IMG/VR virus record: IMGVR_UViG_3300033076_000932
Location: 1 to 40,091 of that record
Length of the DNA stretch: 40,091 bases
Reading direction: 5' to 3' (one strand)
Origin: a virus
Lineage: Duplodnaviria > Caudoviricetes
The translations under genes were made by a program, and so were the position numbers. Under the pieces are notes generated by a model, which saw only the letters and a program-made list of their open reading frames with translations, was not told the origin of the DNA and did not search any database. Positions 5,931 to 24,048 of the stretch are shown one piece after another (the stretch's first letter is position 1; each line of letters opens with the position of its first letter).

Positions 5931-6425
5931 TCAGGTGGCGGCAGCTACTGCGGCAGGATTCAAGAAAACAACCAGCTCAAGCACCGTGGAAAGCGTTTCG
6001 GTTTTCTCTGCGTTGTCGATTGTGCGGGAGCCATCAATCTGGCGCAGGGTGTCACCGACAACCATGAGGTAGTTGCGGGTGGCAAAGGCAGCTTTAAGCC
6101 CAGTCCAGTTGCTCAAGGCTGCGCGGATGGTCCCACGCTTGGTGCCTGGAGATTGGCTTTGCTCTGGCTGGTACACCAGATCCAGCCGCACCCGCAGGGC
6201 AAACTGGTCATAGATGGCGGTGCCAGCGTAGGTGCCGGTAGCGGGGGTGTGCTGATGCGGCCCCCAGCGCACCACCTCAGTCTGCACCTCCACCCGTGGG
6301 GTGGTCAGGGCGGCGGCGGTGTCGGTGGTGATTGCCCCAAGGCTGTACGGGGTGGCGGCAAGGAAGGTTTTGAGCGAAAGCTCAACCTCAGTCTCCACGT
6401 CTAGGATCGTCGCCAGCGTCGCCAT
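5931..6425 (-). CDS. Putative tail terminator / tail completion protein
   Basis: Position and size; start set at MATLAT by the upstream TTGACG-N13 motif. Confidence 0.55.
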   Translation of the reverse strand: MATLATILDVETEVELSLKTFLAATPYSLGAITTDTAAALTTPRVEVQTEVVRWGPHQHTPATGTYAGTAIYDQFALRVRLDLVYQPEQSQSPGTKRGTIRAALSNWTGLKAAFATRNYLMVVGDTLRQIDGSRTIDNAEKTETLSTVLELVVFLNPAAVAAAT

Positions 6426-6444
6426 GCTTGGCGGCAAGCGTCAA
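6423..6444 (-). promoter_or_regulatory. TTGACG-N13-ATG late-gene motif (tail terminator)
   Basis: TTGACG cttgccgccaagc ATG. Confidence 0.65.
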
Positions 6445-7067: not shown

Positions 7068-7406
7068 TCAAGCCCGGTTGTCATCCTTGAGCACCACCTC
7101 ATATGACACCAAATCTGGGGCCAGAGAGATGCTGACAATCTCGTAGGAAGTCCAAGCGGATGCAGATGGGTACTTGAGCGAGATGAAGCCCTGCGGCTTG
7201 AAAGAGGCGGTGACGGTGAAGGCAGCGGTGGAGAACACCACCCGCACCGCTCTGGTGTCGAGGTTGCCGCACAGCAGCAGGGTCTCCTCACTGGTCAACT
7301 CAGTAGCGGCACAAGTGAACTCAGTGCTGCCAAATTTGGCGGTGATGGGTAGATCCGCAATCATCCCAGCCAAGTCAGTCGCCAGCACTGTGGTATCAAT
7401 CGCCAT
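7068..7406 (-). CDS. Putative head-tail joining / head closure protein
   Basis: 112 aa, beta-rich, first gene of the neck/tail block. Confidence 0.55.
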   Translation of the reverse strand: MAIDTTVLATDLAGMIADLPITAKFGSTEFTCAATELTSEETLLLCGNLDTRAVRVVFSTAAFTVTASFKPQGFISLKYPSASAWTSYEIVSISLAPDLVSYEVVLKDDNRA

Positions 7407-7425
7407 GCCCCGCTTGGGGCGTCAA
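7404..7425 (-). promoter_or_regulatory. TTGACG-N13-ATG late-gene motif (head closure)
   Basis: TTGACG ccccaagcggggc ATG. Confidence 0.65.
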
Positions 7426-7429: not shown

Positions 7430-8107
7430 TCATGCCTGCTCCAGCCCAGCGTATGCCAGCGGCACCCTTGAGCCCACAGCTATCCTGCGCGGGGTGCCGG
7501 AAGCAAATGGGTCATGCCAATCCATCTGCACCTTGGGCATGTAGGCATATCCAAAGGTCTTCTTGAGCCCAGCAATCATGGTCTGCCGGGTGGGTCTGCC
7601 AGAGCGGCGAGAGATGGAGGTGCTGGGGTTGTCGTAGTCGTAACGCTCAACCCAGTCTGTGTCTCCTGCGCTCTCAAGGTAGTCAAAGACCACCACTGGG
7701 GCGATGCGTGCCAGACCACGCAGCACCTGGAACTCGGTGAGCGAATCATTAAGGTGGTAATATACGCCCCACAGATACACCAGATCCGCTGTGAAGTTGA
7801 ACTCTGGCCGCTCAAGGCAATCCTCTAGGTTGCCCAAGATGAAGGTGAGGCGCGGATCACCGGCAAACCTCCGCTTGATGATCTCAAGGTTTGCCTCACG
7901 CCCATCATTCACGATGACGCGAGCGGCCCCTTGATTCAGCAACCACTCAGTCTGGTCACCAATGCCAGCTCCGCACTCAAAGATGGTTTGCCCAGCGATG
8001 GGGATGCCGGTGCGCAGGAGCAGATCCCAGCGCAGATTGTTTAGGTGCGTGTAGCGATCAGAGTGAAAGCAATCCCACACTGCCTGCTCGGTGCTGTTCA
8101 GTTCCAT
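7430..8107 (-). CDS. Class I SAM-dependent methyltransferase
   Basis: Motif I IFECGAGIG, acidic motif II (VNDGR), DLVYLWGVYYHL; start set at MELNSTEQ. Confidence 0.85.
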   Translation of the reverse strand: MELNSTEQAVWDCFHSDRYTHLNNLRWDLLLRTGIPIAGQTIFECGAGIGDQTEWLLNQGAARVIVNDGREANLEIIKRRFAGDPRLTFILGNLEDCLERPEFNFTADLVYLWGVYYHLNDSLTEFQVLRGLARIAPVVVFDYLESAGDTDWVERYDYDNPSTSISRRSGRPTRQTMIAGLKKTFGYAYMPKVQMDWHDPFASGTPRRIAVGSRVPLAYAGLEQA

Positions 8108-8757
8108 GTTGGTCTGTTGATGAATGCCGCCACCGCTTCCTGCTTGAACGTCACCGAGCCTGGAGGCAGGCCAGCCCCGCCATGTGGGAAGGTGGGGGCG
8201 TAGGTGTAGCGCATGACATGGGCGGAAGGCCAAGGAAAGCGGGCGGATGTGCCCCAGCGGGTGGCGTGGTCTGTGTCCACTTGCCGATTGTTATCCTCCA
8301 CCACAAACATCAGCGGCAACCGCCTGCCTTCGGCAAACCTGATCGCCTCATAGGTGTGGCCGTTATCCTCTGCGCCGTCGCCAAGAAAGCACCACACAAA
8401 CGCATCCTCACCGCTCTCCTTGATGGCAAGGGCCACACCGGCAGCGATGGCGCAGGTTCCAGCCAAGATGCTGCTGGTGTAGAATCGCCGCTCACGGTCA
8501 AAGATGAACATGGAATCTCCCCGGCAGATTGCCTCCTCCACCTCTGCGGCTGGGATGCCCTTGAGCAGCGCATGGTAGTGGCTGCGGTGGCTGGAGAATA
8601 CCCAATCCTGCGGGCGGATCTCGGCAAACAGGTCAAGAAGCTGCTGCTCGTTGCCGCCGCTGAGATGCACAAGGAATGGCAGCTCCCCTGCGGCAAAGCG
8701 TTCTTTGATGCGCTGCTCAAACGCGATGAGGCTGGCGGCGGTGTGGTTGTGATTCAT
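8098..8757 (-). CDS. ThDP-dependent enzyme, E1-alpha-like subunit (short)
   Basis: HLSGGNE, SSHRSHYHAL, ThDP motif GDGAEDNG...VVEDNN. Confidence 0.9.
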   Translation of the reverse strand: MNHNHTAASLIAFEQRIKERFAAGELPFLVHLSGGNEQQLLDLFAEIRPQDWVFSSHRSHYHALLKGIPAAEVEEAICRGDSMFIFDRERRFYTSSILAGTCAIAAGVALAIKESGEDAFVWCFLGDGAEDNGHTYEAIRFAEGRRLPLMFVVEDNNRQVDTDHATRWGTSARFPWPSAHVMRYTYAPTFPHGGAGLPPGSVTFKQEAVAAFINRPTWN

Positions 8758-9278
8758 AGCAGATCCTTGAACTCAACAATGAGGGATGAGGTGCCGCGCA
8801 GTTGGGCATCCCGTGCCGCTCTATACACTCCAACCACTGATGCTGGTGCCAGTATCTGCAGCACCGGGAACGTCACCAACCGCTGGAAGGCTCGAGTGAA
8901 GTCTTGGGTGTGGGTGTGCCCGGTGAACAGTGGCTTGGTGCGGTTGCCGACTACTGCCCGCAGGATCACCGCTGGCTTGTACTGCCCGCGAGATATTTTC
9001 TCGGCGGCGGCCAGATGGTTCACAATGCAATCAGCGGCGTTGAGGATGAAATCAAACCGCTCAAAGTACACCAGCGGCAGGAGCCCAGCCAGCGATTGGC
9101 CAACCGCCACACCTGTCATCAGGTTTTCAGCCACGGGTGTCTCTGTGATCTGCTGTGGCGTGGCTGCAGCCAGCGTGCCACCGGCTCTGCCGTGGGTGAG
9201 ACCATAGCCCACAAAGCGTGAGCGTGGATCTGCAGCCAACTCAGTCATGGCGGCGGTGAGTTCTTTTTTGTAGCTCAT
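8754..9278 (-). CDS. ThDP-dependent enzyme, E1-beta/transketolase pyrimidine-binding domain only
   Basis: ETPVAENLMTGVAVGQSLAG...RFDF...HTHTQD; 174 aa, lacking the usual C-terminal domain. Confidence 0.85.
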   Translation of the reverse strand: MSYKKELTAAMTELAADPRSRFVGYGLTHGRAGGTLAAATPQQITETPVAENLMTGVAVGQSLAGLLPLVYFERFDFILNAADCIVNHLAAAEKISRGQYKPAVILRAVVGNRTKPLFTGHTHTQDFTRAFQRLVTFPVLQILAPASVVGVYRAARDAQLRGTSSLIVEFKDLL

Positions 9279-10267
9279 GGCATCTCAATCAAAATGCGCC
9301 CAGCTTCACCCGCCCGCACCAGGTCAATGGCTTGGTTGATCTGCTCCAGCTTGAAGCGGTGGGTGATTAACCCGTGGCAGGAGAGACTGTCTGCCGCTTT
9401 GAGATAGCGTGGAATGTCAACATCTGGGCGGAAGCCACCACCCTGCGTGGCGCGGATGCTCTTGCCGTCGCCATCAAACATATGGCGGGCACTCTTGATG
9501 CACACCGGGCGATGCGGCGGGGGTTGCCCGATCATCACATAGCGGCCAGAGGGTGCGAGGTGCCCAAGCGCATCCTCCATTGTCTCTGGGTTGCCTGCGG
9601 TGTCCAAGATGAGATCGAACTTCCCGGTGATGCGCTCAGTGGTGAGGTTCACAAACTCGCCACCCTGTATTTCCACCCGCCTCCGCTTGCTCTCATGCAC
9701 GTCACAGGCGCAGACACGGGAAGGGGTGGAAAGCTCAAGGGCTGCAAGGAGTGAGTAGCCCAGCCCACCCACGCCAATCACCAGCACCTCTTCACCAAGC
9801 TGCAGCCGCTCTTGCTCCAGCGTAGCCAATGCGGTGGAGAGTGAGCACCCAAGCAGGCAGCAAAGGTCATTGTCTGTGCCAGCGGGGACTGGCGTGAGCC
9901 GGTTCTCTGAGCAGATGCTTTGCTCTGCAAAGGTGGTGACTAGGCCGGATGTGATGGTGCTGCCTTTGTATTCGTACTTCGGGAATGGCGAATTGATGCC
10001 ACCAGCCTGCCGCCAGTGCATCACAACCTTGTCGCCCACTTTGATCCTGCTCACACCAGGGCCAATCTTTTCAACGATTCCCACACCCTCATGCCCCAGC
10101 AGATGCGGGAGCGGCCCGCCCTTCTCCCCCTTGATCTCCTGCAGTTGCGCACCGCAGATGCCGCTGGCCAGCACCTTCACCTGTACCTGCCCAACATCCA
10201 GCGAAGTCAGGCCAACGTCTGCCACCACCAGCGGGGCATTCAGTTCCTCGAGCACCGCCGCCCTCAC
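9275..10267 (-). CDS. Zinc-dependent medium-chain alcohol dehydrogenase
   Basis: GICGAQ, GHEGVG catalytic-Zn motifs; GVGGLG Rossmann motif. Confidence 0.92.
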   Translation of the reverse strand: MRAAVLEELNAPLVVADVGLTSLDVGQVQVKVLASGICGAQLQEIKGEKGGPLPHLLGHEGVGIVEKIGPGVSRIKVGDKVVMHWRQAGGINSPFPKYEYKGSTITSGLVTTFAEQSICSENRLTPVPAGTDNDLCCLLGCSLSTALATLEQERLQLGEEVLVIGVGGLGYSLLAALELSTPSRVCACDVHESKRRRVEIQGGEFVNLTTERITGKFDLILDTAGNPETMEDALGHLAPSGRYVMIGQPPPHRPVCIKSARHMFDGDGKSIRATQGGGFRPDVDIPRYLKAADSLSCHGLITHRFKLEQINQAIDLVRAGEAGRILIEMP

Positions 10268-10503
10268 TTGCCACCTCCTGCTGCGGCACGCTTCTGCTTT
10301 GGCATTGGCACAACCGCACCCTCACCAATCACCGCAGGGGCATTGTGCAGCACTACCGCCTGTGCCACGTCACCGCAGGCAGTCCAGTAGTTGGCGTTGA
10401 ACGGACCACCCGCAGGCACATACCCGTGGGAAATGTGGATCGCCACCAGCGACTCCAGATCCGTGAAGTTCTGGGCGGTGAGAATTTTATATGGCTTGCT
10501 CAT
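10264..10503 (-). CDS. Small DUF1737-like protein
   Basis: YKILTAQNFTDLESLVAIHISHGYVPAGGP...AQAVV; GGAGG SD before ATG 10503. Confidence 0.5.
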   Translation of the reverse strand: MSKPYKILTAQNFTDLESLVAIHISHGYVPAGGPFNANYWTACGDVAQAVVLHNAPAVIGEGAVVPMPKQKRAAAGGGK

Positions 10504-10606
10504 GTGTAGATCCTCCGAAGTGGCTTCCAGTTCACCGAGAGCTTGAGATGCTTCTGCCATGCGTGGGCAGAAATGTGCTTTGGTTTGCTGCGCTTGTTGC
10601 TCTTGC

Positions 10607-11413
10607 TCATAGGATGCCCCGTAGTTGCAGAATCTTTCGCGCCTGCACAAAGTTGGCAGCGTGCGCGGTGTTGGGTGCCAGCTCCACCTTCTCACTGCCA
10701 AGCAGGATCAGGCGGAACTCCACGCTGGCAGAGTTGAACACGTTGAAGGTGGGCCAGCAGGGGCCGGTTGCCACCATGATGATATAGCGGCAGAAGCGGG
10801 AGAGCGCACCAATCTGTGTGACAGTCATGGCACGATCAATCGTGCAGGGCACCTTGAGCCGGGTGCGGGCGGTGGTCACCACCCGGTGCTTCTGTGCTAG
10901 GTCATGCACCAGGTGCTCCATCTGCATCACGTCATAGGCCGGGAGCTGCCCGCTCTTTGGCGGTGAGTTGATCACCAGACAATCAAACGCTGGGAACTCA
11001 AACCGCCGCAGCGCAGGGTAGTCAAAGAGCAGATCCGCTGTGTTGTGGATTGGGCACTCCAAGCGCATCTGCTGCGCTAGGTGGTGGAAAAACTTCACAT
11101 AGAATGCCCCGTAGTTGAGCGCATCATCATGGTGCTCCCAGTACCCGCCCGCATTCTTCCAGGCATCAATGGAGCGCAGTAGTGGGCGTGGCTGCATATC
11201 CCAATACAGCCGATCCCCGTCGCTCACCGTCTCAAGGTCACAGACTGAGAGGTTGGGCAGGTCACTCACCACCTCTGCCAGTTGGTGGATGTACTCAAAG
11301 TGGGCGTAGTGGATGAAGCGATCCTCAACGTGAGCCTGCGCCAGCTTCCGCAGGAACTGCAGATGCTGCAGGTTGTCACCGAGCCGCAGGGCGCAATGGG
11401 TGCGGTGGATCAT
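10607..11413 (-). CDS. Glycosyltransferase, GT9 (heptosyltransferase)-like GT-B fold
   Basis: N-terminal RLGDNL and C-terminal IGALSRFCRYIIMVATGPCW match GT9 hallmark regions. Confidence 0.65.
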   Translation of the reverse strand: MIHRTHCALRLGDNLQHLQFLRKLAQAHVEDRFIHYAHFEYIHQLAEVVSDLPNLSVCDLETVSDGDRLYWDMQPRPLLRSIDAWKNAGGYWEHHDDALNYGAFYVKFFHHLAQQMRLECPIHNTADLLFDYPALRRFEFPAFDCLVINSPPKSGQLPAYDVMQMEHLVHDLAQKHRVVTTARTRLKVPCTIDRAMTVTQIGALSRFCRYIIMVATGPCWPTFNVFNSASVEFRLILLGSEKVELAPNTAHAANFVQARKILQLRGIL

Positions 11414-11673
11414 AGCTCACCCCTGCAAACCATCTCCCTGATTTCTTCCCAAGACTTGGGCTTCAAGCATTGTCCTTTTTCAAGTGCTGCGATCTTTTTG
11501 TGTGCCCGCTCAAGTTCTTCCATGAGCGTGGTGATGTTTCTGGCATCCCTCGCAAGGCTCTCCTTCATCGCAATGTTATCCTTGATAATCGAAGACAGGT
11601 GCAGCACCAGGCCCTCCACGTTCTTTGGGGTTATCTTCTTTGGAATGCCGTGAGTGTATTTCTTATGCTTCAT
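11410..11673 (-). CDS. Hypothetical coiled-coil protein
   Basis: 87 aa, 4-nt overlaps with both neighbours. Confidence 0.6.
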   Translation of the reverse strand: MKHKKYTHGIPKKITPKNVEGLVLHLSSIIKDNIAMKESLARDARNITTLMEELERAHKKIAALEKGQCLKPKSWEEIREMVCRGEL

Positions 11674-11978
11674 GGGAGTGATTTGCCTGTATATTCTTTT
11701 CTTTTTGCTTCGATGAACTTGACCAACCCACGAAGCTCTTTGATCGCACGATCCATTTCTTCTAGTTCGTATCCGCCATCAACAACGGCACGCTTCATTT
11801 TTTTGATCAGTTTTTCTCCGGTAAGCGTGTTGCCAATTTCGTCGCGCTCATCATTTGCAAGAGCAATTTCCCATCCGCCTCTGATAAAAGAGCAGTGGAA
11901 GACAGGAACAAACGGACCAGCATTTTCGTCACAAAGATCGCGGATTCTATCAAGACGCTCTTGCTTTGTGTATTTCAT
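11670..11978 (-). CDS. Hypothetical protein
   Basis: 102 aa, 4-nt overlaps with both neighbours; AT-richer than flanks. Confidence 0.6.
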   Translation of the reverse strand: MKYTKQERLDRIRDLCDENAGPFVPVFHCSFIRGGWEIALANDERDEIGNTLTGEKLIKKMKRAVVDGGYELEEMDRAIKELRGLVKFIEAKRKEYTGKSLP

Positions 11979-13801
11979 GGGATCGCGTGCTTGGGATTTC
12001 TGCGGTTATAGATGGCCTTCCCCTCCACATAGCGGCGGTGCTCGTTCTGCCGCTTGTGCGTCTCATCCCACTGCTCCAGCGGCAGGTTCTTGAACACCGG
12101 GTGATCGTGGGAGAACACGATATGCGGTGCCTGCACCACCACCTCATCATCATAGGCCCGCACCGTGAACTCATTATCAGAAAAGACCCCGAAATACTCG
12201 GATGAGAACATTTCAAACCCCTGCGCCTCATAACGGGCACGGGTCAGGATTGCCATGCACAGAAGTGCATCTGTGCGGTGGTTGTCTCGCACCGCCAGCA
12301 CCAGCGGGGTTGAGCCAACGGTGCCAGTCTCTGCGCTGGCCAGCGGTTCCAGTGATTCCCAGATCAGCGCATCCCAGTCATGGCATGGTATCCAATCATC
12401 CGACAACTGCACCAGCACCTCACCGGCAGACACTGCCGCAGCCGCATTCCATGCCTTCACGCAGCCGTTGGGCTCCTTCACCACCACATGCCGGTGGTGC
12501 TGCAGCAGCTCCAGGCTCTCCTCGTCATCCTCATCAATGGCAAAGATGTGCTCCACCCCCAGCGGGCAGAATGCCGCCCGCATCCACAGTGACCTGCACT
12601 CAAGGGCTTTCTTGGCCCGCCCACGGGTGGCGTGGATGAGGGAGATGCGGTTGCCGTTGGCCTTGAATATCTGCTGCTCAGTGGTGCGTGCCAGTTCCTC
12701 CTGCCCTGCGGCCCGCAGCGATAGCACCCGCAGATTGGCCCCTTCCCACCCATGATACTTGTCTGAGGTGGGGTAGCCGGTGGCTCGAGCCTTCGGGATC
12801 GCCTGCATGAACCCGGTGGCAACTGTGGCTCGCCCGCCACGCCCAGCCCGCAGTTCATAGCTGGCAAGGTCTCCCCATGCCAAGCGGTTCTTGGGATTGA
12901 TGCGGATGGCAGACCAGCAAAGATCAATCGCGTGCTCCACATCCTTGGTGGCGGCAATCTGCGCTTGGTTGCAGAACAGGTCATACCGCTGCTCTGGCAG
13001 GCAATCAGTCTGATGGGCCAGCTCTGCCCACTTGGTTGCCTGCTCCGCATCCTCTGCCTTCTTCCCCTGCTGCCACCGATAGAATGCCTCCCGGTGCAGC
13101 TCAAAGGCATAGGCGTGGATGTAGCGGATCTGGTGCTTCATGATCCGCTCATTGCGCAGCGGGTCACGCTCCTTCTCCCGCAGCGGGGCGTGCTCAAAGA
13201 TCACCCGGTTCTCAATCAGAGCCTTCCAGTCCTTTCCCTGCGGGTGCTTGAGATGCACCCTGCACTGCTCATGCACCGGCTGCACCCACTGGGAGATGCC
13301 GGTGCGGAACAGCCGCTCCCGCACATTGCTCTCATTCTGCCCGCGCAGGTCATAGGTGAAGAAAAACTGGTCATGCGAGTCTGCATCCGCGCACAGGCGC
13401 AGCAGCTCCGCGCCACCCACTCCCTCCACTGCCGGGGCAAGCACATCGTCTATATCTGCCCAGAACTGCCAAGGGCAGGTTGCCATTGCCCATGCTTGAT
13501 TGCGGGCGGCAGCAAAGTCATCCACATGGGGCCAGGTTGCCGGGGTGTGCTCCTCCACCTCACACCCAACTTCCGGTGGCATTGCGGCCAAATTCCAAGC
13601 GTTCTTATATTCACCGCATAGAAACGTCTTGCCGTGCTTCCTGCACCAATCCTTGGCCAAGGAAAGGGTCTTGTCATGGCGGTTGTTGCCGACTGCCCGC
13701 ACCAGGCACAGCTCATCAAACGCATCCTTGAATGAGTTAAGGAACCGCTCAATGCTCGGCTCCTCGTTTCCCGTAATACAGCAGAGTGATATCTTGCTCA
13801 A
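11975..13801 (-). CDS. Multidomain glycosyltransferase: GT2 + TPR + second GT-A domain
   Basis: KISLCCITGNEE, DDFAAARN, WADIDD (DxD), VHE; TPR-like helices; second domain ISLIHATRGR...AWNAAA...LSDDW...SDNEF. TTG 13801 preferred over 13873, which lies in the terminator. Confidence 0.85.
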   Translation of the reverse strand: MSKISLCCITGNEEPSIERFLNSFKDAFDELCLVRAVGNNRHDKTLSLAKDWCRKHGKTFLCGEYKNAWNLAAMPPEVGCEVEEHTPATWPHVDDFAAARNQAWAMATCPWQFWADIDDVLAPAVEGVGGAELLRLCADADSHDQFFFTYDLRGQNESNVRERLFRTGISQWVQPVHEQCRVHLKHPQGKDWKALIENRVIFEHAPLREKERDPLRNERIMKHQIRYIHAYAFELHREAFYRWQQGKKAEDAEQATKWAELAHQTDCLPEQRYDLFCNQAQIAATKDVEHAIDLCWSAIRINPKNRLAWGDLASYELRAGRGGRATVATGFMQAIPKARATGYPTSDKYHGWEGANLRVLSLRAAGQEELARTTEQQIFKANGNRISLIHATRGRAKKALECRSLWMRAAFCPLGVEHIFAIDEDDEESLELLQHHRHVVVKEPNGCVKAWNAAAAVSAGEVLVQLSDDWIPCHDWDALIWESLEPLASAETGTVGSTPLVLAVRDNHRTDALLCMAILTRARYEAQGFEMFSSEYFGVFSDNEFTVRAYDDEVVVQAPHIVFSHDHPVFKNLPLEQWDETHKRQNEHRRYVEGKAIYNRRNPKHAIP

Positions 13802-13865
13802 TATGGTGTCCCCCGTGGGCTCTGTTATATCATGGGATCGCTGATCCTCAAAATCTGGCTTCTGG

Positions 13866-13903
13866 AAACACAAAGCCCACCCAGCTTGTGGCTAGGTGGG
13901 CTT
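13866..13903 (-). terminator. Intrinsic terminator after the major capsid gene
   Basis: Stem AAGCCCACCTAGC / GCTGGGTGGGCTT with a 5-nt loop, followed by TGTGTTT. Confidence 0.75.
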
Positions 13904-13943
13904 CGATGAATAACCCCGCTCGCTTTATTTACACCCCAGAAGA

Positions 13944-14918
13944 TTAAGCGTAAGAGGTGACCAGAAGCTGTGCAGCCGTCGCCAGCACAATCTTCTCATC
14001 GGTGTACTGGCGGGCACGGATGATCGTGCTGCGGATGTTCTCATCCCGGTAGCTTTCCACCGTGAAAATGTCCGCATCCTGCTGCCAGAACAACGTATGA
14101 CCAACCGAGCCCGAGAAGAAGTCGTTGGCCGAAGCCGCCGCCTTCACCGTGCCGATCCAGATGTACGAATTGCTCCAGATGTTGGAGAGGCTGGAGGCGG
14201 AAGCGTTCTCGTTGGTGGTGTCATAGGTGGCACGACCAACCAGCACTTCCTTCACGCCAAGAGCCTGCGCCATCGCCGTCTCATCCAGCACAAGCTGGGA
14301 GTCGGTGGAGATGGTGCCACGGATGCGGTTCTGCAGGCGGGTGGAAGCCCGAGCCCGCAGGAACACCGGCAGCGACATGACCACCGTGAGATCCATCGTG
14401 TTTTCACCACGGCTCTGGATTTCCTGCTTCGCAAGGTCGATATCCAGACCGATATCAAACGTGGCGAGGTTGGCGGCGGTGTAAGCCGTCGCAGCAGTGG
14501 AGAGATTGAACGTAGCCGGGGCGAACACCGCCGCAGCCACCCGCTTCTCATGCGCCAACTGAACCTGGCGATACTTGCGGCGGGTCTCAAACGACTCCAG
14601 CGAGAAGAACCGCGAAACATCGGAGGCATTGTCATCCGGCACGATAGCCTCGGCACCGTACTCAATGCAGGTAAAGGTGTCGCTGGTGTAGCTCGCACTG
14701 TCGCGGGCGTAGTTCGCACCGGGACCGCGCCGCTTCACATTGCCCTCACGCAGCAAGCTGCCGCTGTTCTTGGTGATGACGGGATACTGCCCAGCCTTGG
14801 CCGGAACAGGGAGAGGCGGCAGAACCTTCGGGCCAATGAACAGCTCCGAAGTATTGAATGCTTCCTCGACAACGCCGCGCAGATCCGCGCGAAGAATGGC
14901 TCCACCTTGTGCGTACAT
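13944..14918 (-). CDS. Major capsid protein (lambda gpE-like family)
   Basis: 324 aa; FIGPKVLPPLPV...GQYP, HEKRVAA, LGVKEVLVGRA; follows protease and decoration genes and precedes a terminator. Confidence 0.85.
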   Translation of the reverse strand: MYAQGGAILRADLRGVVEEAFNTSELFIGPKVLPPLPVPAKAGQYPVITKNSGSLLREGNVKRRGPGANYARDSASYTSDTFTCIEYGAEAIVPDDNASDVSRFFSLESFETRRKYRQVQLAHEKRVAAAVFAPATFNLSTAATAYTAANLATFDIGLDIDLAKQEIQSRGENTMDLTVVMSLPVFLRARASTRLQNRIRGTISTDSQLVLDETAMAQALGVKEVLVGRATYDTTNENASASSLSNIWSNSYIWIGTVKAAASANDFFSGSVGHTLFWQQDADIFTVESYRDENIRSTIIRARQYTDEKIVLATAAQLLVTSYA

Positions 14919-15373: not shown

Positions 15374-16345
15374 TTAGGCGACGTACTTGATCGCCTTGCC
15401 GCTCTTGCGGAACTCGGCATAGCCTGCCGGGTTCTTGGCGATGGCGGCGGAAAGGGCGCGGCTCTGGCTCTTGCTGGCCTTAAACTGCGACTCCACTTCG
15501 GCAATGAACGCATCCACCGCATTGGGGGCGGCGGGAGCAGGCGTGCCGGCACCGGCACCGCCGAGATCGGCGGGAACCGGAGTGCGGCCAGTGTGGCGGG
15601 CAAACTCCTGCGCCACCGCCTTGGCGGTCAGCTCGAGGTTGGTCTTGGAATCGCCAATCTTGGTGGCGAGTTCCGTCTTCGCCGTTTCCAAGGCAGCGGA
15701 GAGTTCCGCCACCTGCTTGGTCACCGCCGCCAGCTTCTCAGCTTCGGCAGTCACCTTGATCCCCTTTTCCAGCTCGGCAACGCGGGCGGCAAATTCCGCC
15801 AGTGCCGTGGTAACTTCGGCTTTCACAGCCGCTGCGATTTGTTCAGGCGTCATGCTACCACCGGCACCAGCGTCAACGGCTGCAAACAACCCATCTGGAT
15901 TGGCTGCAGGCTCGCTCACCAAGTCGCAGCTATAAATCTCAGAGCACCTGGCACAGCGCATCCCACCCACCTCCTCGGTGGGGCCGGAGAATGCCACCGA
16001 GAGCCCAAAGGTGTCAGGGATCTTCTGGGCCAGCTCCAGCACATACTCCCGCTGCGTGCTCGACTGCAGCAGATTCAGATCCCCCTTCAGCTTGTTCCCC
16101 TCAATGCGCAGGGCGGTGATATAGCCCACGATATCCCCCGCATCCCCTTGGTGGGTCATCTTCACCTTGAGCCCGCCAGAGTATTCCTCCGCACAGGCTT
16201 TGAGCTGCTGCAGGGTGAGCTTGTCGCACATCACCCCATGCCCCTTGGCTGGCCCCTCGGTGCAGAGGCTCACCCCGCGAATCACCCCAGCCGCACAGTC
16301 TATCTGGCCAAGCTCAAACTTGAGTGGGAAGGCATACTTGCTCAT
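15374..16345 (-). CDS. Prohead protease fused to a scaffold-like C-terminus
   Basis: GVSLCTEGPAKGHG, H in MTHQ, FGLSVAF, CDLVSEPAANPDGLF; Ala/Lys/Glu coiled-coil C-half. Confidence 0.8.
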   Translation of the reverse strand: MSKYAFPLKFELGQIDCAAGVIRGVSLCTEGPAKGHGVMCDKLTLQQLKACAEEYSGGLKVKMTHQGDAGDIVGYITALRIEGNKLKGDLNLLQSSTQREYVLELAQKIPDTFGLSVAFSGPTEEVGGMRCARCSEIYSCDLVSEPAANPDGLFAAVDAGAGGSMTPEQIAAAVKAEVTTALAEFAARVAELEKGIKVTAEAEKLAAVTKQVAELSAALETAKTELATKIGDSKTNLELTAKAVAQEFARHTGRTPVPADLGGAGAGTPAPAAPNAVDAFIAEVESQFKASKSQSRALSAAIAKNPAGYAEFRKSGKAIKYVA

Positions 16346-16364
16346 GCCCACCCGGCAGCGTCAA
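16343..16364 (-). promoter_or_regulatory. TTGACG-N13-ATG late-gene motif (protease)
   Basis: TTGACG ctgccgggtgggc ATG. Confidence 0.65.
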
Positions 16365-16368: not shown

Positions 16369-16599
16369 TCAGTAGCTGCGCAGCTTCCTAGTCTTGGCCA
16401 GCCACACCTCACGGTTTTCCCTGGTGCCGTACTGGTGCTGGTTGGCATCCACATACTCCTTGCGGCACTCCCGCCACAGCCTCTCCCCAACCTTCTGCTC
16501 TTGGGTTTTGCTGCCGGTTATATCCCACACCCTTGGCACACTGATCTGCTTGGGCTTGCTGCTGCTGCCGCCATTGCTTGTTTGCTGTATTGTATTCAT
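16369..16599 (-). CDS. Hypothetical small protein
   Basis: 76-aa ORF co-oriented with the late genes. Confidence 0.4.
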   Translation of the reverse strand: MNTIQQTSNGGSSSKPKQISVPRVWDITGSKTQEQKVGERLWRECRKEYVDANQHQYGTRENREVWLAKTRKLRSY

Positions 16600-17245
16600 T
16601 GGCTGATTGAAAGTGGGAGGAGAGTGGACGCAATGAGTCCCAGCTTATAGGACTCACTGCTTTCATCGGCTGAAAATGGTATGGAGCCGTGGAGCATTTG
16701 CACTGCACTCGACCAGCGGCGATCCCTCCTAGTCTTGGCTTTTTCTCGCAGCCTGCAGTGGAGTGGGGTGGAAGTCCCCCGAATGGTTATGCCTACGTTC
16801 CTTGCATGTCTTGAAGGTTACCCTCGGCAACCGCTCCTTCAGCCATCTATCCGCTCCAGCATTTCTGGGGAAGCGGTGGCTTACGCGCACAGGTTCTTCT
16901 ATTCATTGAACCTGGAAGATGGCTTGTTGCCACCGCCTCTCTGTTCGACCGTAAACCGCGACAAAAGAAGAAGGCCAGCGGGGGTCACGCACCCAACTGG
17001 CCTTCTGGCTCGTAAGCCTCACTGAAAGTCTGTTGCGGGCGTGACTCCGCTCAAGCATCCCCGGTATGCCGTCAACCGCCGCTTTTGGCAAATCTGGCTT
17101 TTGCCCTATGGGGCCAGAGGAGTTGACCCCTGCAGATAGGGCAAGACTGGGGTGGGAGAGGGTGGGGTGCTGCACCACCAGATCCCCCCACTGCAGCGAT
17201 ACGGGTGGCGGCATAGCGGGAAACCAAGCGAACCGCCGCCCGCTT
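16600..17245 (-). ncRNA. Candidate large structured RNA / late-operon leader
   Basis: No convincing ORF; many inverted repeats, e.g. 16634-16640/16650-16656, 16812-16817/16836-16841, 16890-16896/16908-16914, 16969-16978/16997-17006, 17101-17109/17136-17144. Confidence 0.4.
16962..17006 (-). terminator. Terminator/attenuator-like hairpin
   Basis: 10-bp stem AGAAGGCCAG/CTGGCCTTCT followed by TCTTTTG on the minus strand. Confidence 0.5.
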
Positions 17246-18487
17246 TTATTTGGGCATGATGGCAAAGTAGGCATCCCCAGCCGCCTTGGTTGCCCGCCCA
17301 CGGTATGCGCTCATCAGGTTCTGCACGCTGGTCTTGGTCATTAGGTAGGCAGTGAGCTTGGCATCCTTGTGCGCGGCCAAGTGGTAGGTGGCGAAGCTAT
17401 GCCGAAGCACATTCCGCATCTGCTCCATTGCCGCCGCCTCCTCTGCAGTCCACTCCTCCTGCCCCTCCTGCTGCTTGGGCTTGAGCCCCGCCGCCTCAAA
17501 CGCCTCCCGCTTGAGTTCCGCATACTGCCGCCGCGAAACATCCCAGCAGGCTGGGGAAGCGTGGCGCATCCATGCCCAGAGGTTGTCTGGCCAGCCGTCC
17601 ACATAGTGCCGCTGCCCGCTCTTGTGCAGGTGCCCCGGCATCACAATCCCCTCATCATCCCACAGAATGTCATCCCTGCGCAGCCTAGCTGCAGAGGTGT
17701 AGCGCAGCCCACCAAATGCCTCAAGGGCCAGCCTGCCCACCGCCAGCCCACCAGCATTGGCTGCAAACAGGGCTTCCGCCTGCTCCACGGTGAGGATGTT
17801 GATCTCCCGGTGGACCGGCTCCCCGTCTTCCCCCACGTCGCTGGCATCCGGCAGCGAGAGCGCATCCGCTGGGTTGTGGGCCAGCTTCCTGCGGAGCCGC
17901 AGCCACTCCAGCCAATGCCGCAGCGTCTTCAAGTGGTGCCGCTTGGTCTTGGCACTCATTGCCTCCCCCGTGTCTGGGTCACGCAGGTTTGCGATCCACT
18001 TGTCCAGATCCTCACTCTGCAGGCTTGCCACCAACCGCCCGCCAAATGCCGCCAGGATGCGCTTCCCGTGGAGCCTGCGGTGGCTGTGGGTGTCGTCTGA
18101 CAGTTTCCGCTTTTCTTGGTCTGCGGAAAAGTCTGCCCATGCTGTTTCCACCGTGAGGCTCCCCGCAGTGCCCCGCCAATCCAGCCACTCCCTCGCCACC
18201 ACCAGCGGGTGAACATCACCCACCAGTTCCCGAAACTCGGTCCAGGTTGCAACGGTGCGGGCATCCACCAACTGTGCCGCCTCCCCAAACTTCTGCCGCT
18301 GTTTAAGCCACGCTGCGGCCCATTCCGCCCGCTCACTCTCACTGGCAAACGATTTGGCTTTAAGCCCAAGGGAACCCCGCCACCGGGCAAGGTAGGGGAG
18401 AGTCTTGGCTGGGCGGGTCTCGTACCACATGCCACCGGGCGGCTCCTGCAGAAACGGCTGGGCTGGCTTTGCCTTCTTGGTGATCAT
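17246..18487 (-). CDS. int: Tyrosine recombinase / phage integrase
   Basis: FGGLR, HKSG, VLRHSFATYHL and a C-terminal catalytic Tyr (SAYRG); SAM-like central domain; adjacent to attP. Confidence 0.92.
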   Translation of the reverse strand: MITKKAKPAQPFLQEPPGGMWYETRPAKTLPYLARWRGSLGLKAKSFASESERAEWAAAWLKQRQKFGEAAQLVDARTVATWTEFRELVGDVHPLVVAREWLDWRGTAGSLTVETAWADFSADQEKRKLSDDTHSHRRLHGKRILAAFGGRLVASLQSEDLDKWIANLRDPDTGEAMSAKTKRHHLKTLRHWLEWLRLRRKLAHNPADALSLPDASDVGEDGEPVHREINILTVEQAEALFAANAGGLAVGRLALEAFGGLRYTSAARLRRDDILWDDEGIVMPGHLHKSGQRHYVDGWPDNLWAWMRHASPACWDVSRRQYAELKREAFEAAGLKPKQQEGQEEWTAEEAAAMEQMRNVLRHSFATYHLAAHKDAKLTAYLMTKTSVQNLMSAYRGRATKAAGDAYFAIMPK

Positions 18488-18661
18488 GGGGTGATCCTTT
18501 CTGGTGATCTCAGGGTGATCAACTCGGTGCAATTATTGCAACACCCTGCTGCATTTTGTTGCATCTCCCACCTATGGGCGGGGCTGTTACCTCTGAAGAT
18601 GGTCGGGGCGGTGAGTCCCTGCCTGTGCCCCGTGGGTGGGGCTGGTGATCGGCGGGTGATC
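18479..18661 (+). repeat. Six direct GGTGATC repeats flanking the attP core; likely integrase arm-type sites
   Basis: Copies at 18479, 18490, 18503, 18514 (left) and 18644, 18655 (right); three pairs each with 11-nt spacing. Confidence 0.7.
18600..18615 (-). other. attP core identical in form to the 3'-terminal 16 nt of a tRNA-Pro
   Basis: Minus strand CTCAC-CGCCCCG-A-CCA = T-stem 3' strand + acceptor 3' strand (pairs with the 5' CGGGGCG of tRNA-Pro) + discriminator + CCA. Confidence 0.75.
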
Positions 18662-18832
18662 TCATTCCATGAATCTCCCCACGATAAACCCGAAGAAGCC
18701 CAGCCCACCAATCACCATCCAGACCTGTGCGGCTCCCATCCGGTTATCTGCCACGGCAAACATGGACACCACCACGCCCAGCACCATTGCCAGTGCGGAA
18801 GCTACCTTGATTTTGCGGGCGGTGAGTTTCAT
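18662..18832 (-). CDS. Small two-TM membrane protein (56 aa)
   Basis: Below the ORF-track cutoff; MKLTARKIKVASALAMVLGVVVSMFAVADNRMGAAQVWMVIGGLGFFGFIVGRFME. Confidence 0.6.
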   Translation of the reverse strand: MKLTARKIKVASALAMVLGVVVSMFAVADNRMGAAQVWMVIGGLGFFGFIVGRFME

Positions 18833-19006
18833 TGGGTGGTGGTGGCAATCACAAAAACCACCCTAGTTTTGGGGTGAATTTTTTCCGCATCTTTTCAATG
18901 GGCTTTGCATAGCATCCTGACTCCAGGCACGTCCGAGAGTATTCCGGTGCCGCAACCATAACGTGGGACAGTGTGTGTCCCACCCAATCTGTTAGGATTA
19001 CAACCA

Positions 19007-19231
19007 ATGGAAAAGATCACGCTTTCCGTCTCTCGTTCAGAGTTTGCCAGGATCGCTCTTGCAGCCCGCGCCATTGGCATCTCGGTGCAATCGCTTGCCG
19101 TCTCTGCACTCATCACTCGCTTTTCTCGCCGCCAATTTTCCCGCTGCGCTCAAGGTCTGCGATGTGCTCCACCAGTACCTTGCCAGCAAAACGGGAAACC
19201 GAGCGATCATCGTTCTCAGCGGCACGCTTGA
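19007..19231 (+). CDS. Possible RHH-like protein, antisense-overlapping the repressor 3' end
   Basis: MEKITLSVSRSEFARIALAARAIGISVQSLAVSALI fits a beta-alpha-alpha RHH pattern. Confidence 0.35.
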   Translation: MEKITLSVSRSEFARIALAARAIGISVQSLAVSALITRFSRRQFSRCAQGLRCAPPVPCQQNGKPSDHRSQRHA

Positions 19232-19304
19232 TTTTTGCAGCCAGTTCAGGAGTGACGTTGATGGTGATGCGCTCCCACGTTTTTCTGCCCGTTTTGATTT
19301 TCAT
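19113..19304 (-). CDS. Ribbon-helix-helix (Arc/Mnt/CopG-like) regulator; probable repressor
   Basis: RITINVTPELAAKIKRAAENDDRSVSRFAGKVL. Confidence 0.8.
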   Translation of the reverse strand: MKIKTGRKTWERITINVTPELAAKIKRAAENDDRSVSRFAGKVLVEHIADLERSGKIGGEKSE

Positions 19305-19345
19305 GTTTGGCTGGGTGTGCTGCAAAGTGCAGCAAAATGCAGAAA

Positions 19346-19366
19346 AGTCAAAAAAGAGTATTGACT
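19346..19366. promoter_or_regulatory. Back-to-back -35 elements of divergent promoters
   Basis: AGTCAA-N9-TTGACT (TTGACT on each strand) in the AT-rich divergent gap. Confidence 0.55.
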
Positions 19367-19371
19367 ACGGA

Positions 19372-19388
19372 TGCATAACAATTATGCA
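19372..19388. promoter_or_regulatory. Operator 1 (palindrome)
   Basis: TGCATAA-CAA-TTATGCA overlapping the rightward promoter spacer/-10. Confidence 0.7.
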
Positions 19389-19469
19389 CTTTAACCGTGA
19401 AGGCTGAGTTGAAAGACCAAGCCCACAAACAAGCGGTGCCAAAACCCCAGCTTTTATTTTCAATCCGAG

Positions 19470-19486
19470 TGCATAACCGTTATGCG
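19470..19486. promoter_or_regulatory. Operator 2 (palindrome)
   Basis: TGCATAA-CCG-TTATGCG overlapping the ATG at 19482. Confidence 0.7.
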
Positions 19487-19649
19487 AATCACCATTAGCA
19501 TCCCGAAAAAAATCAAAGCGAAGCTCAAGGCAGCGGCAGATGCCGAGCGCAGGAGCGTCTCAAACTTTGCCAGCCGCATTCTTGATGCGAGCCTGTCAAC
19601 CACTGCGGACACCAGCGGAAAGCTGAAGACCAGCAAGGGGGCAGCATGA
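19482..19649 (+). CDS. Ribbon-helix-helix regulator, Cro-equivalent position (55 aa)
   Basis: Below the ORF-track cutoff; MRITISIPKKIKAKLKAAADAERRSVSNFASRILDA; stop overlaps the next ATG. Confidence 0.8.
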   Translation: MRITISIPKKIKAKLKAAADAERRSVSNFASRILDASLSTTADTSGKLKTSKGAA

Positions 19650-19996
19650 GAATCGATGGCATACCCTTTGAGCTTACCCGGTGGGACGGTAGCCGAGAGC
19701 CGTTCAACTGCTTCTACGTTTTTGTGCTCAAGGATCAGGTGGTGTATGTCGGCTCAACGGGAAACCTTGCGCTGCGGGAACTGGACTGCAGGCGGTCTGA
19801 AATAAAACGGGATGCCGTTTACTACGTTAGAACCGGAACCCGTGGTGAGGCATATGACTGTGAGGCGTGGTTGATCAATACGCTGAAGCCCCGCTGCAAC
19901 ACGATGTTTCACGGGAGGAAGGCACCACCGATTCCATACCCGCCATTCTTTCTATACGGCAACTCAATCACATTCACTGAAAGAGGTGCAGCGTGA
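19646..19996 (+). CDS. GIY-YIG nuclease family protein
   Basis: CFYVF...VVYVGSTGNLALR...CEAWLI...PRCN. Confidence 0.75.
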   Translation: MRIDGIPFELTRWDGSREPFNCFYVFVLKDQVVYVGSTGNLALRELDCRRSEIKRDAVYYVRTGTRGEAYDCEAWLINTLKPRCNTMFHGRKAPPIPYPPFFLYGNSITFTERGAA

Positions 19997-20211
19997 GCAG
20001 CACCGGCACCTCCCGCCCCCTCACCACGGCAGAGGAACTTGCTGCCCTGCGTGCTGAGATAGCTCCCAAGCTGGAGCGCATTGAACAGGTGATGAATCTG
20101 CTGCTGGTGAAGCGGCCCACGCTCAAGGAGCAGGCCAAGCAGGCTGGGGTGAGCCCCAGCACCTTGTGCCGCCGCAGGCAGCGGCTGGCGATGGGGAGGA
20201 GCTTTCTATGA
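19993..20211 (+). CDS. Small HTH protein (possible excisionase)
   Basis: TLKEQAKQAGVSPSTLCRR. Confidence 0.6.
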   Translation: MSSTGTSRPLTTAEELAALRAEIAPKLERIEQVMNLLLVKRPTLKEQAKQAGVSPSTLCRRRQRLAMGRSFL

Positions 20212-20381
20212 ACACCGAGACCAAGATTGCGCTCACCCTGATCGTTAGCTTTGGCGCAGGTCTGCTGCTGGTAGCAGTGGGGCTGGGGTTCTCTCCGAAG
20301 CTCACCAGCTTCTTCCTTGGGCTCATCCTGTGCTTCGCTTCGGTGAAGCTGATGAGCAGCACCAGCGGAGGTGGGCGATGA
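20208..20381 (+). CDS. Small two-TM membrane protein
   Basis: Two hydrophobic stretches; ATGA overlaps with both neighbours. Confidence 0.6.
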   Translation: MNTETKIALTLIVSFGAGLLLVAVGLGFSPKLTSFFLGLILCFASVKLMSSTSGGGR

Positions 20382-20605
20382 ACGCACCCAACCGCAGGCG
20401 CGGCAAGTACGGCAGCACAGTGGTGGAGCCAGCCGACTACTTGGCAGCGATTGAGCAACCCAACCTGCCGGTGCCCGCAGTGGTTGGCCCGCGCATTGGC
20501 GAGGGGTTCAGCCTACTGGCGGCAAAGCGGCACGCAGATGAGCAGGCCGAGAAGATCCCAGAAGCCCGCTTTGTGCGGAAGTGGCGGGAGAACTTTCACG
20601 ACTAA
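20378..20605 (+). CDS. Hypothetical protein
   Basis: GGAGG SD and ATGA overlap. Confidence 0.55.
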   Translation: MNAPNRRRGKYGSTVVEPADYLAAIEQPNLPVPAVVGPRIGEGFSLLAAKRHADEQAEKIPEARFVRKWRENFHD

Positions 20606-20654
20606 AGCCCAGCCTTGGGCGCAGTCACAAACGAAACCAACAAGGACAAAGAAC

Positions 20655-21068
20655 ATGAAAATCGGTGAAGCATTCCCGAGCAGCTTCCTCAAAGTGGATG
20701 ACCTGCAGGGGCGAGATGTAACGGTGACCATCGCCAGCGTTGAGCTGGAGACCATCGGCAAGGATGACAAGGAGCAGAAGCTGGTGCTGGGCTTGCTCGG
20801 CAAGACCAAGAAGCTGGTCTGCAACAAGACCAATGCCAAGACCATCGCTGGGCTGCACGGAGAGGAAACGGATGAGTGGGTGGGCAAGCAGATCATCCTC
20901 TCCCCACGGGAAGTGGAGTTCCAGGGCAAGATGGTGATGGCAATCCGCGTCTCCCTCAAGCGGCCCGGTGCAGCTCCGGTGCAGGCCAGCAGCAGCAAGA
21001 AGGCACCCGTGCAGCAGCAGGAAGTTCCGCCCGCTGATGCGGCAGATGCGGAGGATGTTCCCTTCTGA
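20655..21068 (+). CDS. Putative single-stranded DNA-binding protein
   Basis: FPSSFLKVDDL...NKTNAKTI...DEWVGKQI core and an acidic tail ending EDVPF. Confidence 0.7.
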   Translation: MKIGEAFPSSFLKVDDLQGRDVTVTIASVELETIGKDDKEQKLVLGLLGKTKKLVCNKTNAKTIAGLHGEETDEWVGKQIILSPREVEFQGKMVMAIRVSLKRPGAAPVQASSSKKAPVQQQEVPPADAADAEDVPF

Positions 21069-21252
21069 TCTGAATCTGCGGTGGGGCAATGAGGAGGCGG
21101 GTGCTGATCCCATCCGCCAGTGACCTGATCCCCATCGCACCAACTAGCTGGGTGTGGTTCCCGCAAAGCGACGCTGCGCGGAAAGGACCACCAAGAAGGA
21201 ACTGTAGGACTTCCCAGCTATTTCTCTCCCCCAACTTTTACACACCACTTTC

Positions 21253-22056: not shown

Positions 22057-22074
22057 CCACCAGCACCAACTACT

Positions 22075-22668
22075 ATGGAAACCAAATCGCTGGAGATACG
22101 GGTGGGCAAAGTGAAGCGCACCCGCAAGAGCATTGAGATATCGTGGAAGCAAGGGGTGGCTTCCTTCGGGCTGGCAGAGCGTGACAATCCGCTGCCCAGC
22201 TTCACTGAGGCACTGGATGCGCTGGCCCCACTGGTGGCTACCATCTGCCATCTGCCCACCGAGTATGTGCAGGGCGGGTGCCGGGTCATCGGTTTCACCA
22301 TTGATGAGCAGGCTGGGGCCGATGCCGTGAGCATTCTGGTGAAGAAGCAACTGCTGGATGCAGCCAAGGAGTTTGCCTTCAAGACCCCCGCCCGCCTGCT
22401 GGAGCACCCAGCCGAGCCGGGGACATATAGCCCACCGCTCTCTGTGGCAGATGCCGCTGTGGTGTATGCCGCCATTGATGAGGCCAAGCGGTACATCAGG
22501 GGCGAGCGTGCGCAGGGGCTCATCAGCTTTGGTGATGAGGATGACGGTGACGAATTTGGCGAGGAGTCCACCGCTGGGGATAGCGAGGGAACTGTTGAGA
22601 TGGAGCTCTCCCCCAGCGGTGTCATTCGCCGCAAGGGTAGCAAGCGCAGCGCAGGAGGTGGGTCATGA
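22075..22668 (+). CDS. Hypothetical protein
   Basis: 197 aa; YIRGERAQ motif, acidic C-terminal region. Confidence 0.7.
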   Translation: METKSLEIRVGKVKRTRKSIEISWKQGVASFGLAERDNPLPSFTEALDALAPLVATICHLPTEYVQGGCRVIGFTIDEQAGADAVSILVKKQLLDAAKEFAFKTPARLLEHPAEPGTYSPPLSVADAAVVYAAIDEAKRYIRGERAQGLISFGDEDDGDEFGEESTAGDSEGTVEMELSPSGVIRRKGSKRSAGGGS

Positions 22669-23223: not shown

Positions 23224-23225
23224 CC

Positions 23226-24047: not shown

Positions 24048-24048
24048 T

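Follow-up and report, generated by a model that had tools for sequence, protein, structure and literature searches.

Glycosylated virions have been proven in few tailed phages, in which the modification affects antibody recognition. Described cases include the mycobacteriophages Che8 (gp110), Corndog (gp38) and Myrna, which encode their own glycosyltransferases (GTs), and the acceptors reported there are capsid and tail-tube proteins (PMC12363180; this and all other papers are cited for the portions available). A second related group comprises Listeria GmaR and the glycocin GTs SunS and ThuS, in which an N-terminal GT-A domain is followed by tetratricopeptide repeats (TPRs) and the acceptor is a protein or peptide. 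GmaR modifies flagellin with N-acetylglucosamine through its GT domain, and a role in substrate recognition has been proposed for the TPRs (PMC9638930). In this study, we analyzed IMG/VR virus record IMGVR_UViG_3300033076_000932 (the window, which is the entire linear record of 40,091 bp) and describe a nine-gene cassette between its major capsid and neck genes, encoding a double GT and a putative sugar-making module. The cassette probably serves to glycosylate the phage's own virion. That a phage GT and a module for a C-branched sugar achieve this jointly is our best reading, held tentatively and with slightly less than even confidence. Virion glycosylation itself is already known from mycobacteriophages; what is new here is the accessory module of a thiamine diphosphate (ThDP) enzyme pair, a redox enzyme and a GT9-like protein. 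The available part of PMC12363180 does not mention a ThDP/redox sugar-making module, and the host here, unlike mycobacteria, is likely Gram-negative.

The cassette consists of nine minus-strand open reading frames (ORFs), running from 13801 down to 7430, with overlaps of 4-10 nt at all junctions. Their order is GT, orf102, orf87, GT9-like protein, orf116, Zn-dependent alcohol dehydrogenase (Zn-ADH), E1-beta-like protein, E1-alpha-like protein and methyltransferase. The original prediction, made from this sequence, had described nine co-oriented ORFs after the capsid gene, and this is borne out, as are its domain calls (GT2+TPR+GT-A, GT9 fold, ADH, E1_dh with Transket_pyr, methyltransferase). 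As a list of cassette components it holds for six enzymes only, since a search of 297 loci gave no homologue of orf102, orf87 or orf116, which are passengers. Upstream lies the major capsid gene (13944..14918, minus; phrog_1005, E 1e-31). Downstream are a 112-aa ORF without family match, called neck by position only, a tape measure gene (phrog_9483) and tail genes.

The first gene (11975..13801, minus; TTG start) encodes a 608-aa double GT, with a GT-A domain at about residues 1-215, TPRs at about 228-381 and a second GT-A domain at about 383-608. Its structure model (predicted local distance difference test score, pLDDT, 95.7) likewise shows GT-A, helical repeats at 228-381 and GT-A. Because the acidic motifs D116-x-D118-D119 in the first domain and D468-D469 in the second are invariant among 64 sequences, both domains are probably active. 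The profile of these sequences matches GmaR (22ao, E 7e-15, the best non-repeat solved relative), SunS (2e-8) and ThuS (2.5e-6), as well as consensus TPR proteins. In Foldseek, SunS and ThuS ranked top. The N-terminal part fits ThuS/SunS best (against SunS, VIA Z 16.5, root mean square deviation (rmsd) 3.1, 184 aligned). The C-terminal part best fits GT-A enzymes that extend glycans (e.g. WrtF and RmlT), with many other structures tied. The relationship is distant, with about 15-21% identity to GmaR, SunS and ThuS in structural alignments, and the SunS equivalog TIGR04195 was not reached (13.4 bits against a curated cut-off of 350). In contrast to GmaR, which has an antirepressor domain at that place, the window GT has its second GT-A domain. 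It is likely a priming and extending enzyme, and its sequence predicts sugar transfer to Ser/Thr of a protein. The earlier view of GT2+TPR as a protein-glycosyltransferase type agrees with the GmaR/SunS relationship found by profile and by Foldseek.

Relatives of the GT are numerous. Scoring of 7,996 candidates gave 813 homologous clusters, and IMG/VR is estimated to contain about 1,000 stretches that match. In 50,697 annotated phage records, tblastn at 1e-5 matched nothing, although remote homology is possible there, and a single-sequence scan of viral contigs gave none, whereas an alignment-based scan did find relatives. Many of 720-800 aa (e.g. L052:6269-8494) have a fused C-terminal Methyltransf_24 domain, then a 197-aa GT2.

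We surveyed 260 GT loci, which represent 101 lineages. The N-terminal domain is present in 83 of these lineages (defined at 85% identity and including the window). Capsid profiles were built from the GT loci themselves and named by PHROG. BLAST among 1,706 ORFs of 104 representative loci used greedy gene choice, which dropped some real genes, so the counts were taken from profile searches. A capsid gene was in view in 72 of the 83 lineages, and in 65 of these it lay at most 1 kb upstream on the same strand (40 lineages of phrog_283-type, that is phrog_283/267, and 25 of phrog_1005-type). Among the remaining seven, L078 is adjacent but was mis-scored through an over-long ORF, one is 1.4 kb off, and the GT of the other five is inverted, with tail genes on one side and portal genes on the other. 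A phage-encoded GT linked to virion genes, as in virion glycosylation of the mycobacteriophage type, is thus present. The synteny survey proposed with the original prediction therefore places the GT directly after the capsid gene in two capsid families. The description of the cassette as "inserted" between capsid and neck genes gave the right location but understated the case, because GT after capsid is the usual state of the family.

The start of the GT gene shares a sequence motif with head genes. In phrog_1005-type lineages, TT[GT]AC-N13-16-ATG stands ahead of the GT in 18 of 31 and ahead of the head protease in 15 of 24. It was found at 0/26 capsid, 0/12 portal, 1/6 terminase and 0/10 GT9 genes, and at no module-internal gene. 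The five inverted GT lineages retain it, as expected of a promoter, back-to-back with a second copy facing the gene before portal. Late co-regulation of the GT with head genes is supported for many relatives and only assumed for the window. There, a strict form of the motif occurs four times on the minus strand, each at the start of a structural-region gene (36379-36400; 16343-16364, protease; 7404-7425, neck; 6423-6444). The 0.04 occurrences expected from shuffles overstate the significance, because the pattern was drawn from those same sites. The loose form is not enriched in the window (8, against 2-14 in 10 shuffles); the real test of the motif is the cross-lineage table and not the window counts.

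Two further observations were made on this motif. The conserved TTGAC element is separated from the structural-gene ATG by no more than 14-16 nt, a distance too short for the -35 box of an ordinary sigma-70 promoter, and may represent an unusual type of late promoter that yields leaderless mRNAs. Divergent genes in L003, L010, L032, L084 and L145 have copies of it arranged back-to-back.

In the window, the cassette has boundaries on both sides. A terminator-like hairpin with a U-rich tail lies 3' of the capsid gene (13872..13904, minus; z -3.17 for 13850-13945), and TTGACG-N11-GCATG at the neck-gene start (7404..7425, minus), likely a late promoter, closes the cassette. Since the cassette is flanked by this hairpin and by the neck gene's own motif, position alone is no proof of a transcript shared with the capsid gene. 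The 36 loci listed have GC-rich hairpins at the same site, most of them accompanied by T runs (no shuffle control). The window hairpin was not called by a consensus terminator scan, and sigma-70 and terminator scans of the window gave no excess over shuffles (2 vs 3.8; 7 vs 7.6). A possible GT promoter, TTGAGG-16-TATAAC (13824..13851, minus), is weak, was seen by eye only and failed the promoter scan.

These boundaries bear on a serious rival explanation, in which the cassette modifies the host surface (lipopolysaccharide (LPS) core, flagellin or pilin) against superinfection, from its own promoter, in the lysogen or in early infection. The GT9 fold as in LPS heptosyltransferases, the flagellin-GT ancestry of the GT, the possible own promoter and an integrase in the window and in 6 of 16 near-complete relatives agree with it, and a host-surface reading is favored for GT islands of SAR11 myophages (PMC7029224). 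We nevertheless consider it improbable, given the tight linkage to two capsid families and a motif common with head genes and retained after inversion. The cassette also encodes neither a flippase nor a polymerase and, judged by hydropathy, which peaks at 1.91 over 19 residues, has no clear membrane segment. Gtr cassettes, which convert the host serotype, combine a membrane flippase and a membrane GT near the integrase. No such family occurs among the nine ORFs, and the integrase is 3.4 kb from the cassette, with three head genes between. Furthermore, the complete genome G313 (33 kb, terminal repeats, 49 ORFs listed) carries the cassette, and no integrase was detected in it by profile search, by tblastn with two integrases or by a PHROG scan of 36 of the 49 ORFs.

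Several observations weigh against a virion target. The window GT lacks the exact motif, and the motif is present at only 1 of 41 phrog_283-type GTs. The integrase in the window, together with the hairpin and motif boundaries, makes separate, even lysogenic, expression possible. Integrase absences are soft, because the integrase of the window itself escaped the profile search. Most proteins with a GT9 fold are enzymes of the LPS core. The earlier argument that a late-operon position favors a virion target thus holds for the comparative linkage, but it is weaker in the window itself, with its hairpin, the neck gene's own motif and a GT without the exact motif.

A complex glycan on hypermodified phage DNA is another alternative, and a very improbable one. 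Phage GT-A and GT-B enzymes glycosylate 5-hydroxymethylcytosine with varied sugars, and such DNA-glycosylation pathways cluster with 5mYOX or thymidylate-synthase-family (ThyS) genes (bioRxiv 10.1101/2023.12.21.572611). The window is only 67% complete by CheckV, which leaves room for this explanation. However, a ThyS-family gene was found in 0/39 records and 0/16 near-complete ones, with a working control (10/14), and no ThyS/5mYOX-type family occurred among the 36 G313 ORFs scanned. A TET/JBP dioxygenase search also gave 0/39 records, but here the control genomes gave no signal either. The TPRs and the GmaR/SunS relationship point to proteins instead.

Taken together, the GmaR/SunS relation, the two capsid families, the motif common with head genes in relatives, the lack of a ThyS-family gene and G313 argue for the virion. 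The capsid protein would be the most likely glycosylated structural protein. It contains 17% Ser+Thr and a conserved T-A-Y-T-x-x-N near residues 144-150, and is our first candidate acceptor. A 779-aa LamG-domain protein (31075-33414), encoded between portal and lysis-like genes, is a second candidate, with 25% Ser+Thr and 14 N-x-S/T sequons. Ser/Thr content singles out no acceptor, because most virion proteins are high (0.16-0.25).

The sugar-making module centers on the ThDP pair. The E1-beta-like protein (8754..9278, minus; 174 aa; Transket_pyr, phrog_34187 positions 237-402) has only the pyrimidine-binding (Pyr) domain, with E51 and H123 invariant. The E1-alpha-like protein (8098..8757, minus; 219 aa; E1_dh, phrog_34187 positions 5-194) provides the pyrophosphate-binding (PP) domain. 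Enzymes of this type are defined by the ThDP motif GDG-x24-27-NN in alpha and a catalytic Glu in beta. Both are present here (GDG126, NN156, spacer 27; E51). The 174-aa protein covers only residues ~5-170 of solved E1-beta chains and does not reach full E1-beta length (~325 aa with the C-terminal domain), a domain that is absent family-wide. This mini E1-beta family comprises 451 clusters (search range 95-305 aa), and most of the 120 listed are 171-181 aa long. We also considered broken pyruvate dehydrogenase (PDH) genes, and rejected them because E1-beta length is conserved family-wide.

The database names ("pyruvate/2-oxoglutarate/acetoin dehydrogenase E1") and the best PDB matches of the ADH, which are class I alcohol dehydrogenases, would fit auxiliary metabolic genes unrelated to the GTs, leading from pyruvate to acetaldehyde and ethanol, or a PDH fragment. 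We regard this as hardly credible. The pair scores far below E1 family cut-offs, the beta C-terminal domain is missing throughout the family, the GT9-like gene lies at most 2.5 kb from E1-beta in 27 of 32 lineages, and the contexts are always sugar genes.

ThDP enzymes of E1 type are known to attach acetyl branches to keto sugars (PMC12247030, PMC4753412). The alphaKADH2 enzymes (AviB1/B2, Pau11/12, KbDH-alpha/beta) and the split transketolases of miharamycin and amipurimycin likewise have E1-type alpha and beta subunits among sugar genes, with a redox partner adjacent, as far as the available accounts go. The window pair differs in its beta protein without C-terminal domain, its viral origin and its partner (Zn-ADH or radical S-adenosylmethionine (SAM) enzyme), and the likeness is one of description, not of direct sequence comparison. 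For miharamycin, the proposed order is oxidoreductase, then transketolase, so that the split transketolase acts after ketone formation (PMC12247030). By analogy, ThDP carboligation onto a keto sugar is predicted for the window pair.

Close relatives of the pair occur in other phages. Cyanophages P-TIM68 and S-SM2 have an adjacent ADH (47-49% identity) and a fused ThDP pair (44-55%; family of 405 aa) among annotated heptose-pathway genes. They differ in being large T4-like phages with their own heptose-pathway genes and no match to the window GT9-like protein or GT2-TPR, and the function is unannotated. A minimal E1-alpha with 50% identity is also encoded by a 735-kb uncultured phage (LR756501.1 / LR756503.1, 322632-323210). 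Mini E1-beta was absent from 301 sampled genomes in the phylum of G002 and present in 1 of 401 sampled genomes in that of G342. A bacterial island in genome G694 (L313:3493-19811 = G694:C1:636000-655900) combines the ThDP pair with flagellin, GT2, two GT41-TPR proteins, a GHMP kinase, an NTP transferase, a SIS isomerase, a B12 radical SAM enzyme and heptose-pathway-like genes.

The redox partner in the window is a Zn-dependent medium-chain dehydrogenase (9275..10267, minus; phrog_2640). It keeps the three catalytic-Zn ligands (C38, H59 and C141, conserved together with D189) and lacks the four-Cys structural-Zn lobe. An acidic residue at the D189 site marks use of nicotinamide adenine dinucleotide (NAD). 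Among 103 ThDP loci, 21 have the Zn-ADH, 79 have one radical-SAM/SPASM family, none has both and three have neither. By lineage (32 at 88%), the counts are 17 with ADH, 14 with radical SAM and one truncated. A tree of 30 lineages (L110 and L112, both incomplete, left out) has three ADH/radical-SAM changes on the best tree. The two enzyme types have a precedent in 2-deoxystreptamine synthesis, where the NAD dehydrogenase NeoE and the radical SAM enzyme BtrN are alternatives for one oxidation (PMC13707489); the likeness is an analogy only. Among solved structures, the module radical SAM is closest to BlsE, an enzyme that acts on a sugar (E 1e-10). The module enzyme has three annotated plasmid matches, all near sugar or methyltransferase genes, and the strongest of them (34.5%) belongs to a pseB/pseC cluster, where it stands two genes away from a split transketolase.

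The third element is the GT9-like protein (10607..11413, minus; 268 aa), a fixed partner of the ThDP pair with a GT-B heptosyltransferase fold (AlphaFold 2 pLDDT 97.4). Foldseek matched its model to WaaC, TibC and WaaF. By VIA Z, WaaC (14.0; rmsd 4.7, 243 aligned), WaaF (13.4) and the protein heptosyltransferase TibC (13.2) are tied within about 1 unit, followed by 9.2 for other GT-B folds. Compared with these enzymes, it is shorter and only 7-14% identical. It has no Pfam family at E 0.01, PF01075 included, so that the Pfam GT9 family is not matched. An 86-sequence profile found no GT in the PDB by sequence, the protein had no match in the 50,697 phage records, and a profile comparison of two GT9-like families was not significant (probability 0.7%). 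This enzyme may use adenosine diphosphate (ADP)-heptose, a suggestion that comes from context, namely the heptose-pathway neighbors of the ThDP pair.

From these elements we propose the following mechanism. The N-terminal GT-A would prime a protein docked by the TPRs, and the C-terminal GT-A would extend the glycan. The NAD-type Zn dehydrogenase (the radical SAM enzyme elsewhere) would form a ketone by oxidizing a hydroxyl, either on a nucleotide-heptose-type sugar of the host or on the residue already installed. Onto this ketone, the minimal E1 alpha/beta pair would then transfer two carbons that it takes from pyruvate or a ketose and carries bound to ThDP. The GT9-fold enzyme would transfer the sugar, and the methyltransferase would cap a hydroxyl. 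Family scans of the window cassette found no nucleotidyltransferase or 4,6-dehydratase. As the window does not encode the synthesis of nucleotide sugars, the host must supply the donor. Heptose-type oxidation, two-carbon branching and GT9 transfer are favored because of the sugar-branching precedents, NeoE/BtrN, the ADH residues, the BlsE relation and the heptose/flagellin neighborhoods. We hold the oxidize-then-branch order to be slightly favored. The whole is built on gene content, folds and catalytic motifs, on linkage and on the either-or choice of redox enzyme, from which we infer chemistry and acceptor; protein-directed virion glycosylation with phage-made sugar tailoring, as originally predicted, is also the best reading reached here.

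The same virion target could be served by other chemistry, which we regard as unlikely. The ThDP pair would acetylate a host nucleoside diphosphate (NDP)-4-keto sugar and the ADH would then reduce the branch, an order documented for paulomycose and proposed for yersiniose (PMC4753412). Alternatively, the pair would make a chain-extended ketose that the ADH reduces. In either case, radical-SAM lineages would make a different sugar. The G694 pair without ADH or module radical SAM, and an ADH/radical-SAM swap that is possibly a single event, speak for branching before reduction. Against it, the cassette has no nucleotidyltransferase or 4,6-dehydratase, the conserved D189 points to NAD, and the choice between ADH and radical SAM is strictly either-or, in the same slot, across 32 lineages.

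The oxidize-then-branch order and the joint system face difficulties of their own. The ADH/radical-SAM swap represents few events, well-supported branches force only one change, and near-copies inflate the locus counts of the pattern. The L176 group of phrog_283-type relatives comprises 36 loci that are nearly identical. Lineage L290 has the ADH plus an unrelated radical-SAM gene. Equivalence of ADH and radical SAM is not established, because the module radical SAM reaches no family cut-off and BlsE is described as a decarboxylase (PMC3715490). The transketolase step of miharamycin is itself unproven (PMC12247030). In G694, the pair is flanked by a DegT-type enzyme and an NAD epimerase and has neither ADH nor the module's radical SAM, which suggests that the ThDP pair can also work with other partners. 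A GT2-TPR is present in 17 of the 32 ThDP lineages, and a capsid gene lies at most 6 kb upstream in 19 by profiles, plus L254 and L290 (HK97-type capsid). The fetched DNA of the other 15 contains no GT2-TPR, and some of these pairs are beside terminase or in large islands. The module is also optional, being found in 7 of 51 GT lineages with enough downstream DNA (lineages found without the module as query; 22 of 73 dropped as too short). In most GT lineages without it, its place is taken by methyltransferases, a different GT9-like protein or a small GT2.

In a separate set of phage groups (L016-L026, L275, L281 and L296), the ThDP pair and radical SAM have terminase or portal as their neighbor. 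Most of these groups also possess the GT9-like gene, and the DNA fetched for them contains no GT2-TPR.

The cassette is a real, conserved system. A literature search, with most subscription journals and supplements outside it, found no published description of the GT family or module. In its broadest form, our reading is that small uncultured tailed phages, in their hundreds, show a C-branched sugar on their capsids as a variable, O-antigen-like coat. They would make this sugar from heptose by means of a minimal ThDP enzyme, consisting of the PP and Pyr domains alone, together with an oxidase of interchangeable type, NAD or radical-SAM. This is conceivable, although we doubt it somewhat more than we believe it. 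If true, virion glycosylation would be widespread in aquatic and soil phages, with self-made rare sugars and tailoring genes swapped between lineages like O-antigen genes. It would make testable what selects phage coats outside animals (grazers, proteases, host receptors), and a phage of 33-45 kb would perform carbon-skeleton sugar biosynthesis for its own particle. The pair would represent a new minimal class of ketone-accepting ThDP carboligase, one that these phages have in common with bacterial flagellin-glycosylation islands. According to the available part of a review, no ketone-accepting split transketolase is characterized, and such enzymes may exist in viruses (PMC12247030). The mini-E1 family is a concrete candidate. 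The small size and apparent solubility of the cassette make its reconstruction in E. coli, together with the capsid gene, feasible.

The last cassette gene encodes a class I SAM methyltransferase (7430..8107, minus; 225 aa), for which sugar O-methylation is likely. It has no homologue in the 297 loci. Its slot is variable, and relatives have FkbM and Methyltransf_23/24 families there or fused to the GT. The passenger orf102 (11670..11978, minus) has no family (GC 0.44, third-position GC 0.40), and orf87 (11410..11673, minus) has no convincing one (GC 0.48); both are lower in GC than ~0.59. The third, orf116 (10264..10614, minus; start uncertain), has a weak, sub-cut-off DUF1737 match (E 6.6e-4). 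All three were rejected as parts of the system. Contigs of a relative (two runs, one study) cover 29 of 30 bins with a gap at 11496-11776, which proves nothing, and have no indel in the GT start region.

The window phage is a temperate tailed phage, with genes for terminase, portal, major head protein, tape measure, tail proteins and integrase. Stand-alone relatives of the GT C-terminal domain come mostly from Verrucomicrobiota genomes, which suggests Verrucomicrobiota as host phylum, although full-length GT relatives also occur in genome bins of other phyla. The structural genes are split by the integrase and an oppositely oriented replication/recombination block (16400-27300) between portal-side genes and the head protease. 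A ParB-like domain fused to a DNA methyltransferase (38727-40013) stands ahead of the small terminase. The ORF at 29980-30852, whose real start is probably later than listed, has a weak, sub-cut-off match to a papain-fold deamidase (E 0.003). In G313, L298:899-1336 gives a partial QueD-like match (phrog_2389, E 2e-9), with no further deazaguanine gene among the ORFs scanned.

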